Of a DNA stretch of 21,544 nt, positions 1 to 21,544 are shown one piece after another. The stretch lies in assembly GCA_963815195.1 (NCBI GenBank), contig CAWFGE010000025.1:1-21544 (forward strand). Direction: 5' to 3'. Positions within the stretch are counted from its first letter, which is position 1. Each line of letters opens with the position of its first letter. Source of the stretch: an uncultured Planctomycetaceae bacterium. Its GTDB lineage: Bacteria > Planctomycetota > Planctomycetia > Planctomycetales > Planctomycetaceae. The notes under the pieces are model-generated. The model was not told the DNA's origin, did not search any database, and saw nothing but the letters and a program-made list of their open reading frames with translations. Position numbers and translations under genes: made by a program.

Positions 1-1117
1 CGGCCCAAAGCGGTTCCTGGTAATGCTGGCCCCATTCGCGGCCGTAATGATCGAAGGCCACTTTCGGGGTGTCGCCCATCAACTCGGCGAGCGTTTCGAT
101 GGAGCATCCCACTCCCTCGTTCCAAAAACCAGCCAGCATGCGGTGAGCAAACGTGTGCCGGCAGGTGTAGCAGGAGTAATTTTTCCGCGCGGGTTCTTGA
201 TCCCAGCCGAGTTCGCGTTTGATCTTCCGAAAACGGGCGCCGCCGGTGACTTTCTTCCAGGGGCGGCCCTGCGGATTGCGAAAGACAACGGCCCCGGACT
301 CTCCCGCGGTCGGGGAAATCAAATCCCGAGTCAATTCCGCGACCTCCGATCGCACCGGAATTTTTCGCGTCTTCTTGGTCTTCGAAGAGTAAACCCGCCA
401 CATCATCCCGCGCTCGGTTTCCTCCACATCTGCGACCGTCAAACGTGCCAATTCGCAAAACGGCCGCAGGCCCGTCTGAATTGCGGCAAAGAGAAAATTG
501 GCGAATGCCTCATCCGTCGCGGAATAGAGGAGGGCCTCTTCCTCAGGATCAATGGATTGCAACCGCGGTTTTTGCGGCGGCTTTTTGAGCCCCGTCAGCG
601 GGTTCGGCACGTCGTACATATCCTGAGCATGATTGAAGGCGCCCAACACGATCGTCATTGCATTTCGCTTCGTGACCGGGGATTTCCAAGTGGAGCGGCT
701 TTCGACCCAATGCTGCACGTGCCCTTTTCGTAAGTCATTCACCGGCAGCGCCCCACAGTAGCCACAGAAATCGTTTAGATAACGCACGACCTCTTCATGG
801 TATTCCATTCGAATCATTTCCTTGGTCGCTCGCTGTTCACAATAATCGATGAAATGTGAACACACTTTCGCCACGACCCACTGGTCTTCGCTGGCCTGTT
901 CCGCGGAGGGGCGCCAGTTGCCCGCGGCTTTCACGCGAGCCAGAGCCAGTTCCGCGGCGGGCCGATTTTCCTTGCCCCGGATCGGATCCCCCGCTTCATC
1001 ATACAGCCGCACGCGGCCTTTGGTTCCCGGTGGAGTGAAATACCAGCTGTCGGTCTGTTTCCAATACCAGGCTTTCCCGCGAGATCGCCGTTGACGGCCC
1101 GTGTTGTTGTTTGTCAT
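1..1117 (-). CDS. Tyrosine recombinase/integrase, paralog B (3' end runs off the window)
   Basis: Not in the ORF track. Translated by hand from ATG 1117 (ATGA overlap with the stop of paralog A): MTNNNTGRQRRSRGKAWYWKQTDSWYFT...TGLRPFCELA...SSKTKKTRKIPVR...YSCYTCRHTFAHRML...LAELMGDTPKVAFDHYGREWGQHYQEPLWA. Open for 372 codons to the window edge. Confidence 0.9.
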   Translation of the reverse strand, partial: MTNNNTGRQRRSRGKAWYWKQTDSWYFTPPGTKGRVRLYDEAGDPIRGKENRPAAELALARVKAAGNWRPSAEQASEDQWVVAKVCSHFIDYCEQRATKEMIRMEYHEEVVRYLNDFCGYCGALPVNDLRKGHVQHWVESRSTWKSPVTKRNAMTIVLGAFNHAQDMYDVPNPLTGLKKPPQKPRLQSIDPEEEALLYSATDEAFANFLFAAIQTGLRPFCELARLTVADVEETERGMMWRVYSSKTKKTRKIPVRSEVAELTRDLISPTAGESGAVVFRNPQGRPWKKVTGGARFRKIKRELGWDQEPARKNYSCYTCRHTFAHRMLAGFWNEGVGCSIETLAELMGDTPKVAFDHYGREWGQHYQEPLWA

Positions 1118-2412
1118 GCCTTCGACTTTCTCCTTGGGGGTGAGGCGGCTCGCTTTTGCTTTTTCTGAGTCGCCGACTTCGAGGCCGAGCGGGATTTTTT
1201 ATCGTGCGGTCGGCCGGATTTCGAGCGGCTTTTCGCCGAGGTTTTTTCGTCGGCTGCATTGGACTCGGCTTTGGCGTCTCCGTCGCGGGCTTCCCCGATG
1301 GCGTTCCAGAGCGGATCCTGATAATGCTGGCCCCACTCCCTGCCGTAATGCTCAAAAGCCACCTTCGGCGTATCGCCGATGAGTTCCGCCAGGGTTTCGA
1401 TGGAGCAACCCACTCCGTCCGTCCAATACCCGGAAAGCATCCGATGAGCAAAGGTATGGCGGCAGGTGTAACAGGAATACTTCCCCTTAATGGGATCCTG
1501 GTCCCAGCCCAACTTCTTTTTGATCGCGATAAACCGCACCACGCCGGTGGTCCGCTTCCAAGGATTGCCTTGGGTGTTCCGAAGGAGGGGCAATCCCGAG
1601 CCCTTGGGGGCCGTTTCCATCAAAGTTCGCGTCAACTCGGCCACCTCCGGCCGCACGGGGATCTTCCGTGTCTTTTTGGTCTTGGACGAATAGACCCGCC
1701 ACATCATCCCCCGCGGCGTCTCTTCCACGTCATCCGCTGTCATTTTCGCCAACTCGCAAAACGGTCGCAGGCCGGTATGGATGCTGGCGAACAGGAACTC
1801 CTTAAAACGGGGTTCGGTGGCTTCATAGATCGCCTGTTCCTCTTCCGGCGTCAGGGATGCCAATCGCGGTTCCGCCTTGGGTTTCTTCAATCCTTTGATC
1901 GGATTCGGAATCCCAAACATCTCGGCAGCCCGATTGAACGCTGCCAAGACAATGGCAATCACCCCGGAGCGCGTGGCAGGGCTCCGCCAGGTCGGATGGT
2001 TATCCAACCACTTTTGAACGTGCCCCTTCTTGAGCTGAGCCACCGGAAGGGCTCCGCAGTATCCGCACAAATCGTTCAGCCAGGCGGCGGAGTTATTTCG
2101 ATGCCCCAGGCTGATCGTGCCTTTCGCCAATCCCCGCTCGCAATACTCCAGATACTCGGAACAAACGCGGGCCACGATCCATTGGCCCCCGGCATCTCCG
2201 CCTGCGGGTTCCCGTTCCCAGGTCAATTTTTCCCGAGCCAGTGCGATCTCCGCGGCTTGCCGATTTTCCTTGCCCCGGATTCGTTCCCCTTGCTCATCGA
2301 ACAGCGGCACGCGTTGTTTCGTGCCGGGTCGGGTGTAATACCAACAGTCAGTTTGTTTCCAATGCCACGCGGACCCGTGCGACTGCCTGCGTTTTTTGGA
2401 TTTTCTTCCCAT
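1114..2412 (-). CDS. Tyrosine recombinase/integrase, paralog A (432 aa from the likely start), with a basic C-terminal tail
   Basis: Motifs HTGLRP (Arg I), SSKT (Lys), YTCRHTFA (Arg II) and LIGDT...EHY (Tyr nucleophile). The ORF track starts at 2511, but ATG 2412 follows an AAGGA Shine-Dalgarno and aligns with the start of paralog B. Confidence 0.92.
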   Translation of the reverse strand: MGRKSKKRRQSHGSAWHWKQTDCWYYTRPGTKQRVPLFDEQGERIRGKENRQAAEIALAREKLTWEREPAGGDAGGQWIVARVCSEYLEYCERGLAKGTISLGHRNNSAAWLNDLCGYCGALPVAQLKKGHVQKWLDNHPTWRSPATRSGVIAIVLAAFNRAAEMFGIPNPIKGLKKPKAEPRLASLTPEEEQAIYEATEPRFKEFLFASIHTGLRPFCELAKMTADDVEETPRGMMWRVYSSKTKKTRKIPVRPEVAELTRTLMETAPKGSGLPLLRNTQGNPWKRTTGVVRFIAIKKKLGWDQDPIKGKYSCYTCRHTFAHRMLSGYWTDGVGCSIETLAELIGDTPKVAFEHYGREWGQHYQDPLWNAIGEARDGDAKAESNAADEKTSAKSRSKSGRPHDKKSRSASKSATQKKQKRAASPPRRKSKA

Positions 2413-2433: not shown

Positions 2434-2534
2434 GCTCTGCGCCGTATCGCCGCCATTGACCCGCCGCCCGGCGCGATTGATACTAAAGCGGAGTTTTCGA
2501 TATGCCAGCATCAGCCCCTTTGGGAGGCCAGCTC

Positions 2535-4157
2535 ATGTTCTTCTCGCGACGTTTTCCCTTGAATGGATTCCCTGCCCATTTACTACACAAATTTGCTACA
2601 TTCATTCTTATCCTCGGACCAGCCATTTTGTCAATAGGCACTTGCAAAAAAGGGGTATCAGCGGATAATAAGCGTGTACCTAATATTGTACTAATACTTG
2701 CGGACGATTTGGGCTACGGCGATGTGGGCTGCTTCAATCGGGATTGCCCGTTCAAAACGCCCCGCCTCGACCAGATGGCGGCGGAAGGGGCCCGGCTGAC
2801 GAACTTCTACGTCCCCACGCCTTACTGCGCTCCGTCGCGCGGCACGATTTTGACGGGGCGGTATCCGTTCCGGCATTCGGTCGTGAGAAACCCCGCCCCG
2901 GACGTGGGGGCCTCCAACTTCGGCTTGCCGCCGTCGGAGATTACGATCGCGGAACTCCTCAAGTCCGCCGGCTACGCGACGGCGGCTTACGGCAAATGGC
3001 ACCTCGGCCACAAAAAAGACTGGCTGCCCCGCACGCAGGGCTTTGACGAGTACGTCGGCATTTTGTATTCGAACGACATGTTCCCGGTGCAACTCGTGCG
3101 GAACGAGGCCGTCGTCGAATACCCCGTCGTGCAGGCGGAACTCACCCAGCGGTATACGAACCTGGCGATGCGGTTTATCCAGCAGAACAAGGACCAGCCG
3201 TTCTTTCTGTACTTGCCGCACGCGATGCCGCACAAGCCGCTCGCGGCTTCGGACAACTTCTACACCCCCGGAACCCCAGACAATTTGTACGCCGACGTGA
3301 TGTCCGAGTTGGACGACGGCATCGGGCAGGTGCTCGATCTGCTCAAGAAGTTGTCGCTCGACGAAAAGACGCTCGTGATTTTCACCTCGGACAACGGCCC
3401 GTGGTACGGCGGCTCGACGGGTGGGCTGCGGGGGATGAAAGGCCGAACCTGGGAAGGCGGCCTCAGGGTGCCGATGATTGCCCGCATGCCGGGCACGATT
3501 CCTCCGGGCGTCGTCAACGATTCCCCCGCCGGGACGATCGACATTCTGCCCACGGTGTGCAAGCTGGCGGGGGTGGACGTTCCGAGCGACCGCGTGATCG
3601 ACGGCCGCGACGTTTTGTCCATGCTCAAAGATGCCAAAGCCCCCAGCCCGCACGAGGCGATCTTCGGCATGCAGGGCCAGTCGCTGGCGACGATTCGCGC
3701 CGGCCAATGGAAGCTGCACGTCCGCAATCCCGGCCCGCCGCGGTTTATCAATCTTTCCAAGGACGAGCTCGAGAAGTGGGTCGATCCCCGCGGTCCCGAC
3801 GGCGTGATTTTGCTTGCCCCCTACGAGCAAGCCAAGCCGACCCAATACCCCGGCCTGACCACGGGCGATCCGCCGAAAGCGATGATGCTCTTCGACCTCG
3901 CCGCCGACCGGGGCGAGCAGCACGATGTCTCCGCCGAGCATCCGGACGTGGTGAAGCGCCTGCTCGCGATATTCGACAAAGTGAAAGCCGATGTGCCCGA
4001 CTTCCCCGAACCGAAGTCCGATTATCTCTTCAAGACGCCGGCGAAAGGGCCCCGGCCTTTGATGCGGTTGATCGGCGGCGAACTCCGCTACGACCGCATC
4101 CCCAAGCCGCAGGAGCACCTTCTGAAGGAACCTCTTAAGAATTCCAAGGAAGAATGA
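2535..4157 (+). CDS. Formylglycine-dependent sulfatase (arylsulfatase A-like)
   Basis: PNIVLILADDLGYGD, CAPSR (CxPxR), LTGRYP, GKWHLG and FTSDNG motifs. GGGAGG Shine-Dalgarno at 2522-2527 favours ATG 2535 over 2502. Confidence 0.95.
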   Translation: MFFSRRFPLNGFPAHLLHKFATFILILGPAILSIGTCKKGVSADNKRVPNIVLILADDLGYGDVGCFNRDCPFKTPRLDQMAAEGARLTNFYVPTPYCAPSRGTILTGRYPFRHSVVRNPAPDVGASNFGLPPSEITIAELLKSAGYATAAYGKWHLGHKKDWLPRTQGFDEYVGILYSNDMFPVQLVRNEAVVEYPVVQAELTQRYTNLAMRFIQQNKDQPFFLYLPHAMPHKPLAASDNFYTPGTPDNLYADVMSELDDGIGQVLDLLKKLSLDEKTLVIFTSDNGPWYGGSTGGLRGMKGRTWEGGLRVPMIARMPGTIPPGVVNDSPAGTIDILPTVCKLAGVDVPSDRVIDGRDVLSMLKDAKAPSPHEAIFGMQGQSLATIRAGQWKLHVRNPGPPRFINLSKDELEKWVDPRGPDGVILLAPYEQAKPTQYPGLTTGDPPKAMMLFDLAADRGEQHDVSAEHPDVVKRLLAIFDKVKADVPDFPEPKSDYLFKTPAKGPRPLMRLIGGELRYDRIPKPQEHLLKEPLKNSKEE

Positions 4158-5315: not shown

Positions 5316-5342
5316 TTGACGACGCCAGCCGGCGGTTATAAT
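5316..5342 (+). promoter_or_regulatory. Candidate sigma70 promoter
   Basis: TTGACG (5316-5321) and a perfect TATAAT (5337-5342). The 15-bp spacer is short. The predicted start site at ~5349-5351 coincides with the 5' end of the rod structure. Confidence 0.45.
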
Positions 5343-5351
5343 CTTCTATTG

Positions 5352-5537
5352 ACTCAAACGGTAAGCGTGTGGGTGGCTGGGGCGCAAATCCCCTTTGAAT
5401 AAGGCTTAAACTGCGAATGCTGGGGCTGTCACCAGGCGAGAAAAATCTGACACGGCCCCAGACCTCCAATCTCCTTTTTCCTCGGAACACTTCTTTGCGC
5501 CCAGCCACCCCCTCCACTTTCGACTTGCAGTTTGAGT
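5352..5537 (+). ncRNA. Candidate structured RNA: 186-nt rod with internal bubbles (6S RNA-like, or kinase 5' leader)
   Basis: Nested stems found by eye: 5352-5367/5521-5537, 5371-5388/5494-5510, 5397-5404/5473-5480 and 5420-5431/5448-5461. A G.U wobble favours the + strand. Confidence 0.5.
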
Positions 5538-5541
5538 ATTT

Positions 5542-18358: not shown

Positions 18359-18415
18359 CGTGGTAAACCCGAATTTCAGTACTACCAAAAAAACTCAAGA
18401 AGCTTTGGCCTAAAA

Positions 18416-18485
18416 GAGCCGCGCACGAAGTAAGCGGTTTTCAGGGATGCAGACAACGCAAGTCCGCTTACTTCGTGCGCGGCTC
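18416..18485. repeat. Perfect 22-bp inverted repeat (REP/REPIN-like)
   Basis: GAGCCGCGCACGAAGTAAGCGG (18416-18437), 26-nt spacer, CCGCTTACTTCGTGCGCGGCTC (18464-18485). Confidence 0.9.
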
Positions 18486-18636
18486 AGGCCTTTTTGGAAC
18501 GACTGAATTTTGGATTTCGTGCTTCGAAATTCACGGCTCATGTTCTCCCCCGGCCTGACCGGATATAATTGAGGTGATGAGTTTATTCTGCGCTTGAAAA
18601 CATGGTTCAAAGGGAGGCTCCGGCCCGGCCGAGTTC

Positions 18637-20722: not shown

Positions 20723-21544
20723 ATGTCAACCCAAAATCGAACGAAAACGCCATTGGGCCTATTCCAAGGCCGCCCGACACCGCGTCTTTACGATGCGGCG
20801 GTCAACGTCTTGCGCGTGCATCACTACAGCCTGCGGACGGAACGAGCTTACCTTGATTGGATTCGCCGATTCATTGTTTTTCACGGCTCTCGGCATCCCC
20901 GCGAATTGTCCGAAGGCGACGTCAACCGCTTCTTGACGCATCTGGCAGTCAAAGAACATGTCGCCGCATCCACCCAGAATCAGGCGCTGGCGGCGATTCT
21001 TTTTCTGTACGAAAAAGTCCTCAAACAACCGCTGGACCGCATTGAAGGCGTCGTTCGCGCCAAACGCCCCAAGCGGTTGCCCGTGGTCTTGACCCAGAAC
21101 GAGATCCGCCGCATTCTCGCCGAAATGAGTGGTGTGCCAAAAACGATCGCCCTGATGTTATACGGCTCAGGACTTCGGCTCCTGGAAAGCCTTCGGCTCA
21201 GGGTCAAAGACGTGGATTTCGAACGGGCGGAATTGACGATCCGCGAAGGGAAGGGGGATAAGGATCGGCGGACGATGCTGCCTGAATCCGTCGCGGAATC
21301 TCTGCGTACGCAAATCGCGAAGGTCCGTATCCAGCACCAGCGCGACTTGGAACGGGGCTTCGGAACCGTCGAATTGCCTTACGCCTTGGAACGAAAACTC
21401 CCAGGCACGGCACGGGAATTTGGCTGGCAATACGTCTTTCCCGCGACGACGATCTCAAAAGACCCTCGCAGCGGAGTTCGGCGACGTCATCACCTCCATG
21501 AATCGGTGATCTCGCGGGCAATTTCCGCTGCGCTTCGGCGAACT
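20723..21544 (+). CDS. intI: Integron integrase (3' end runs off the window)
   Basis: Not in the ORF track. Hand translation is open for 274 codons: HYSLRTERAYLDWIRRF, FLTHLAV...VAASTQNQALAAILFLY, LPVVLT, YGSGLRLLE, GKGDKDR, the IntI-specific insertion VELPYALERKLP...GWQYVFP, and DPRSG.RRRHHLHES. Confidence 0.96.
   Translation, partial: MSTQNRTKTPLGLFQGRPTPRLYDAAVNVLRVHHYSLRTERAYLDWIRRFIVFHGSRHPRELSEGDVNRFLTHLAVKEHVAASTQNQALAAILFLYEKVLKQPLDRIEGVVRAKRPKRLPVVLTQNEIRRILAEMSGVPKTIALMLYGSGLRLLESLRLRVKDVDFERAELTIREGKGDKDRRTMLPESVAESLRTQIAKVRIQHQRDLERGFGTVELPYALERKLPGTAREFGWQYVFPATTISKDPRSGVRRRHHLHESVISRAISAALRRT

Follow-up and report, generated by a model that had tools for sequence, protein, structure and literature searches.

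The 2 tandem tyrosine recombinases at the beginning of the analyzed DNA very probably (probability of about 0.88) mark the right end of a lambda-type integrative element that inserts at the PNIVLILxDD codons of sulfatase genes. In this reading, attR of a lambda/ICE-type element would carry the pair as its recombination module, with the PNIVLILxDD motif at the start of the mature sulfatase domain serving as attB. As judged from sequence comparison, the available genomes contain the two ends of the element and its target, besides an empty site and multiple insertions into different sulfatases of one genome. The window, that is, the whole stretch analyzed here, is an entire contig (C25, CAWFGE010000025.1, 21,544 nt) of the 8.9-Mb genome G000, and its features are listed in Table 1. 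A planctomycete integrative element had been proposed in an earlier, sequence-only reading and is borne out by the ends, the target and the empty site; what that reading overlooked is the main feature, namely the targeting of the sulfatase family with replacement of the 5' end of the target gene.

Table 1. Features of the element right end and of its target in the window
Feature	Position	Strand	Remarks
Integrase B (second paralog)	2..1117	-	372 aa; open at the contig edge
ATGA stop/start overlap of A and B	1114..1117	-	seen in the sequence
Integrase A	1114..2412	-	432 aa; arm-binding, core-binding and catalytic domains, basic tail
Outward sigma70-like promoter match	2456..2484	+	consensus match only, 9/12
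Shine-Dalgarno-like GGGAGG and ATG (2535)	2522..2537	+	also retained in the C13 and G001 scars
Element-encoded sulfatase N-terminus	2535..2700	+	signal-peptide-like leader and PNIVLIL codons
Arm-type direct repeats	2580..2601	+	CTACA at 2583-2587 and 2596-2600; conserved across junctions
attR core	2691..2708	+	element half-site CTAATACTT at 2691-2699; putative 7-bp overlap at 2701-2707
Host sulfatase, 3' part (target gene)	2709..4157	+	CAPSR motif intact; 89% ortholog in G001

Integrases A and B are co-oriented paralogs joined by an ATGA overlap, as originally described, and the identical blocks quoted in that description are all found in both proteins. BLASTP aligned them with 226 of 364 residues identical (62%), and the DNA-level identity is ~66%. 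Both proteins match Pfam Phage_integrase, and the XerC/XerD models reach no more than 18-25 bits, far below their cut-offs of ~330, which places neither protein in the Xer family. The catalytic domain of A carries R216, K244/K247, Y315-x-x-R318, G346-D347 and Y356; the cores of A and B, both of ~375 aa, can be aligned end to end, and both include the catalytic residues. A basic C-terminal tail is present on A and absent from B (median of 48 versus 9 residues in related pairs); judging from these short tails in relatives, the part of B missing at the contig edge is probably only a few C-terminal codons. In the AlphaFold model of A (mean pLDDT 86), 3 strands and a helix at residues ~16-67 form an arm-binding domain (pLDDT ~80-90), and full-length lambda Int is the top fold match, followed by Tn1549 Int. 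Both A and B are predicted to contain an arm-binding domain, unlike Xer. Synonymous sites of the pair are near saturation (pS 0.71, pN 0.26, dS ~2.2, dN 0.31), and a recent duplication and an assembly echo can thus both be dismissed, in agreement with the sequence-only reading.

The 2.7-kb right end (window positions 1 to ~2700) is present in 3 copies in G000, with 99.4-99.6% identity, the other 2 being located at the ends of contigs C8 and C2. The copies are alike through the PNIVLIL codons and, starting from x-Asp-Asp, continue into 3 different sulfatases. In the C2 copy, the B gene shows two gaps of 1 nt each close to the end of the contig (C2:47000-47333), reflecting either sequencing error or decay. 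Among related loci with enough flanking sequence, a divergently oriented sulfatase starts at the PN motif in 62 of 63 metagenome loci, the remaining one carrying a PNIM variant of the motif, and in 28 of 30 genome loci; these loci are kin and partly redundant, so that the counts overstate their independence. The metagenome loci were the best 80 of 262, again partly redundant; the flank was too short in 17 metagenome and 11 genome loci, and one locus yielded no match. The 2 genome exceptions are a truncated fragment (L029) and locus L042, where a single integrase of the family and arm repeats are found next to a non-sulfatase flank, possibly a secondary or switched target. The strict pattern of element end plus target was detected in 21 of the 401 genomes of the class (0 in the reversed control), at 27 loci, 24 of which have an integrase or a fragment of one upstream, 2 are truncated, and the last lacks any integrase sequence within 1.2 kb. 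The sulfatases at other loci share 28-58% identity with that of the window, and G000 contains 49 PN..DD motifs, element junctions included. The 2 aspartates of x-Asp-Asp are metal ligands of sulfatases, and this role would account for the conservation of the target among sulfatase paralogs. A search of viral contigs for relatives returned only 2 distant matches (26-27%).

Left ends were located in G000 at C7:6785, C13:4891 and C14:137998. Each consists of a native sulfatase leader with PNI..xDD, followed by AAGTAT and a common non-sulfatase sequence. This attL pattern was recovered in 10 of the 15 integrase-positive genomes and in none of the 5 others, and the reversed-pattern control gave 0. 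The attL of G053, with an IS66 directly adjacent to it, was located separately; the pattern search found no attL in G359, G424, G017, G282 and G169, nor did an arm-motif search in the stretches examined of the first 4 of these genomes. The arm-repeat doublet of the right end recurs ~120 bp inside the left ends (CTACA doublet in 16 of the 18 left ends listed). Where both ends lie on the same contig, they delimit elements of ~28 kb (G053), 41 kb (G064), 46 kb (G223), 56 kb (G444), 83 kb (G063), and 74 and 137 kb (both G061); complete copies span about 28-137 kb and carry variable cargo. The strongest single result is the empty site: the complete genome G668, from the same genus as G223, contains an uninterrupted sulfatase that aligns with both flanks of the 46-kb G223 copy, at attL with 83% over 1515 nt and at attR with 91% over 2928 nt. 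Two further genomes, G234 and G389, match both G223 flanks; in G291 and G613, only the gene itself has a match.

In G000 itself, all 3 right-end contigs break at the end of B, with the window beginning at base 1 of C25. Backbone-like genes are found at the starts of C14, C10 and C11 and at the end of C3, and the segment following B is therefore probably unassembled. When attL and attR of G000 were paired via genomes G001-G003, the flanks matched in part, and none of the 5 loci examined had the sulfatase start; 3 sequencing runs, available as contigs only, contained no informative joint. The breaks at B and the gapped C2 copy are what one would expect if the sulfatase were cargo or a fixed neighbor of the pair, or if the 3 copies were assembly artifacts. 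We regard this as scarcely credible, given that the sulfatase varies from locus to locus, that orphan native leaders are found at attL, that G061 has 3 element copies on megabase contigs, and that the empty site in G668 contradicts it.

Several additional junctions were encountered. The attP-like junctions in L127, L128, L129 and L135 are chromosomal tandem or re-insertion junctions. The left ends at L128 (G062), L127, L129, L135 and L125 have the element-derived leader as their 5' part, due to either tandem arrays or re-insertion into an earlier attR. At L240-L242 (G444 C26), another sequence resembling a left end, complete with AAGTAG and an arm doublet, lies ~650 bp inward of attL and is preceded by non-sulfatase DNA, a possible case of secondary-site use.

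In the attP order, an arm doublet is followed by CTAATACTT, 9 nt of spacer covering the x-Asp-Asp codons, AAGTATTAG and, oriented the same way, another arm doublet. The putative 7-bp overlap lies on the x-Asp-Asp codons, and the inverted partner of the half-site is the AAGTAT found at attL, a spacing that resembles that of the lambda core with its 7-bp overlap. The target site, attB, is asymmetric and degenerate. In 7 paired elements, GAYGA agrees between both ends, and the 2 bases preceding it differ in 3 of them, which suggests tolerance of mismatches; in 2 of these 3 mismatched pairs, the 5' part comes from an element, and these 2 may represent tandem junctions. The attR half-sites of G444, G053 and G223 are closer to the target than to the element consensus; hence, the crossover position is not uniform. 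The family has the features of an Int/Xis element: core and arm sites at both attL and attR, a relative with an empty attB, an arm-binding integrase and, in relatives, an Xis-like directionality factor.

The right end encodes a replacement N-terminus for the sulfatase whose gene is interrupted. The element-encoded N-terminus is identical or nearly so in the 3 G000 copies, each fused to a different sulfatase, and at all 74 unique junctions the supplied frame is open for 40 codons, as opposed to 21, 1, 0, 37 and 0 of 74 for the 5 other frames. A hydrophobic stretch is present in this frame at 71 of the 74 junctions; one antisense frame is likewise hydrophobic at 58 of 74, so that hydrophobicity partly reflects base composition. 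The arm repeats are dual-coding, reading LLHKFAT in the window and LLHxIAT generally, and in the basal single-integrase clade the leader opens with a twin-arginine-like RRxF motif. A second promoter match lies at 2642-2669 (0.4 matches expected). Two scars, at C13:661088-661414 in G000 and at L090, the G001 ortholog of the window's sulfatase, keep the element promoter, including the sequence of the first promoter match, and the leader, with only ~25 nt of gene A left. The interrupted sulfatase thus appears to gain a promoter, a ribosome-binding site and an export signal from the element, and with these supplied in frame, it is probably still expressed.

In relatives, B is followed by a convergent Xis-like gene with HTH_17 and PHROG excisionase matches; no Xis homolog was found in the G000 assembly. 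Many elements, with a single integrase or a pair, carry behind Xis a module composed of a large serine recombinase, an AAA ATPase, small ORFs, and genes for ubiquitin-like, E2-like/Zn, JAB and ThiF proteins (L079:8912-20000, with equivalents in G061a/b, G065a, G223, G282, G359, G444 and G017); the E2-like/Zn protein is our own reading, made in the absence of a family match. A similar module is present without an integrase pair at C15:274185-286258 of G000. Pfam searches of 193 ORFs from G053, G061a, part of G061c and part of the G000 interiors, a partial coverage with crude ORF calling, detected no relaxase, T4SS or phage structural genes. On contig C14 of G000, RAMP (type III-like) CRISPR genes, CARF, Cas1 and an adjoining reverse transcriptase at ~82-97 kb (L095) apparently lie inside the C14 element copy, and E2/ThiF/JAB genes are located at ~55-57 kb. 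Inside the left end of this contig, a 322-bp direct repeat (C14:62677-62994 and 137455-137772, 78%) surrounds ~75 kb, possibly a nested island; a tRNA-like stretch beside the repeat was not confirmed by ARAGORN or Rfam.

The history of the pair was traced in quick IQ-TREE and FastTree trees. First- and second-position genes separate with 3 changes each, compared to 20-21 after shuffling (73 rows), and with 6-7 changes compared to ~51 in the larger set (167 rows). In 53 related pairs, a set excluding the order-swapped L036 and L197, an independent recent duplication, the 2 proteins of one element are 51-71% identical, no A protein has its own B as the nearest neighbor (0/53), and the distances among A proteins track those among B proteins (Mantel r 0.82). 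Accordingly, the prediction of separate A and B clades that are not each other's closest relatives within a genome was upheld. Purifying selection acts on both proteins (dN/dS of ~0.03-0.15 within clades), and 52 or more of the 53 pairs retain R216, R318 and Y356, in A and B alike. The further prediction that A and B always occur in tandem was not supported. In an even sample of 401 genomes, with 4 candidates scored per genome, 5 have pairs, 7 have a single basal-type integrase at a sulfatase, and 2 have fragments; moreover, elements with Xis and only A (L168/169/171, L158) or only B (L217) were identified. The nearest outgroup consists of tRNA-targeting planctomycete island integrases (25-35% identity), and 6 of 10 scanned distant genome loci have an adjoining tRNA gene. 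The likely order of events would thus be a tRNA target, a switch to sulfatases and then duplication, with the root placed on long branches.

What the second integrase contributes can be considered in light of these patterns. B evolves faster than A (mean distance 0.36 versus 0.29), several copies are frameshifted, and the D adjacent to G347 is replaced by N in 8 B proteins, as might be expected of a redundant duplicate that is retained for dosage and drifts slowly. This is nevertheless very unlikely, because B keeps a dN/dS of ~0.07-0.15 although dS is near saturation, and is retained in most pair-clade elements. Alternatively, the 2 proteins might act separately, one in integration and the other in excision, or on different subsets of sulfatases; the first of these options would be a FimB/FimE-like arrangement. 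The core-binding domains are the most divergent part of the proteins (52% identity between clades versus 69% within A), the basic tail is found on A alone and single-gene derivatives persist, all of which would fit; however, a distinct Xis-like gene is already in place and the catalytic domains are still ~68% identical between clades, and we consider separate roles quite unlikely.

The stoichiometric two-subunit recombinase envisaged in the sequence-only reading corresponds to an obligate XerC/D-like heterotetramer, in which A and B would each occupy one half of the asymmetric core in fixed stoichiometry. An old duplication with conserved gene order and co-divergence, intact catalytic residues in both proteins, an asymmetric, degenerate attB and clade-diagnostic residues (including H12/R, R161/H and R287/K) are compatible with such an arrangement. 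Yet A-only and B-only elements with Xis exist, L036 has the order swapped, a basal single-integrase clade uses the same target, ATGA coupling is found in just 17 of the 53 pairs, and the arm-binding domains predicted in both proteins are unlike Xer. The proposed coupling is not supported, and an obligate heterotetramer appears unlikely. Single-integrase relatives share the sulfatase target and have intact left ends, so that joint action of A and B does not follow from the comparison; our best guess is that the second integrase is an improvement on a one-integrase ancestor rather than a requirement.

In the mechanism that we favor, Int would bind the CTACA arm repeats on both sides and an ACTT-N/7 bp/T-AAGT core, strand exchange would take place across the x-Asp-Asp codons with mismatches tolerated in the first bases, and Xis would set the direction. 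Integration would orphan the native promoter and leader at attL, while the right end would provide the sulfatase with a new promoter, ribosome-binding site and in-frame export signal. As for the duplication, a mixed intasome with divided labor is our best guess, at about even odds: the conserved, ancestral-like A would act on the element sites, and the faster-evolving B would widen the tolerance for degenerate sulfatase targets. A strictly obligate heterotetramer accounts for about half of the likelihood that we give to such a mixed complex. More tentatively, and with the balance somewhat against it, we suggest a new element family that uses the invariant metal-ligand codons of a large enzyme family as a multi-copy attB, has arm sites doubling as signal-peptide codons, and possesses a fixed two-subunit, arm-binding integrase with one subunit devoted to degenerate, protein-constrained targets. 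If so, a given sulfatase would have its promoter and export route rewired as an element inserts, excises or decays, and sulfatase paralogs would exchange leaders when copies recombine with each other.

The element works like lambda/ICE-type Int-Xis elements with 5' gene replacement. The dusA elements (IMEVchUSA3) and SXT/R391 at prfC each use one housekeeping target gene and one integrase, whereas the element described here targets a multigene family, supplies a leader that resembles an export signal and overlaps with the arm repeats, and has 2 integrases; no conjugation genes were seen in the 193 ORFs scanned, with partial coverage. The arrangement of arm-binding, core-binding and catalytic domains is shared with lambda, Tn916 and Tn1549 Int (PMC8138268), as are direct-repeat arm sites. 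Overlap mismatches are tolerated in the coupling sequences of Tn916 (PMC5812530), and apparently also here. However, identity to the lambda, Tn916 and Tn1549 integrases is only 15-19%, Int is duplicated, Y-x-x-R and G-D replace H-x-x-R and G-H, and the specificity is for sulfatase codons rather than for AT-rich DNA or one attB.

More than one tandem tyrosine recombinase, sometimes with short gene overlaps, is also found in RIT, Tn554, SE and GInt (PMC3414803, PMC10214605). The recombinases of those elements belong to distinct families and occur in threes or as long/short pairs accompanied by TnpC/Srap-type partners, and RIT measures ~3.5 kb. The present elements combine 2 arm-binding paralogs of 51-71% identity with Xis in 28-137 kb. 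An ordinary RIT element, which would have refuted the sequence-only reading, is rejected: 2 paralogs followed by Xis are found, and not 3 adjacent recombinases of distinct families within ~3.5 kb. Tn554, SE and GInt are rejected as well, since both paralogs have catalytic cores of ~375 aa that align throughout, in place of one ordinary and one long or non-catalytic recombinase with a TnpC/Srap/GinD partner. The literature searched contained no description of a sulfatase-targeting twin-integrase element; subscription papers and TIGER/'regulated gene integrity' tables, which could list such islands, were outside its scope, and 'sulfatase' had 0 matches in one supplement file of PMC12884075 and in the main text of PMC13626063. 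Relative to known Int-Xis elements, the multigene target, the dual-coding att arms and the long-kept integrase pair are new.

The element lands in many sulfatase genes, apparently without inactivating them, which implies many near-neutral sites per genome and, in turn, permits the multi-copy spread of large cargo, defense-type genes included. Planctomycetes have dozens of sulfatase paralogs with which they degrade sulfated polysaccharides. The scars, which retain the element promoter and leader after loss of the rest, point to permanent rewiring of enzyme leaders. The natural series of single, A+B, A-only and B-only elements lends itself to asking why a second integrase persists, and the element is a candidate integration tool for planctomycetes, a phylum with few genetic tools. 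Elsewhere in the window, an integron integrase (20723-21544, plus strand; TIGR02249, 321 bits, above the cut-off of 265) is cut by the contig end, and 2 dispersed intergenic repeat families (~5340-5540 and 18370-18520) have many copies, 75-95% identical, on most contigs.
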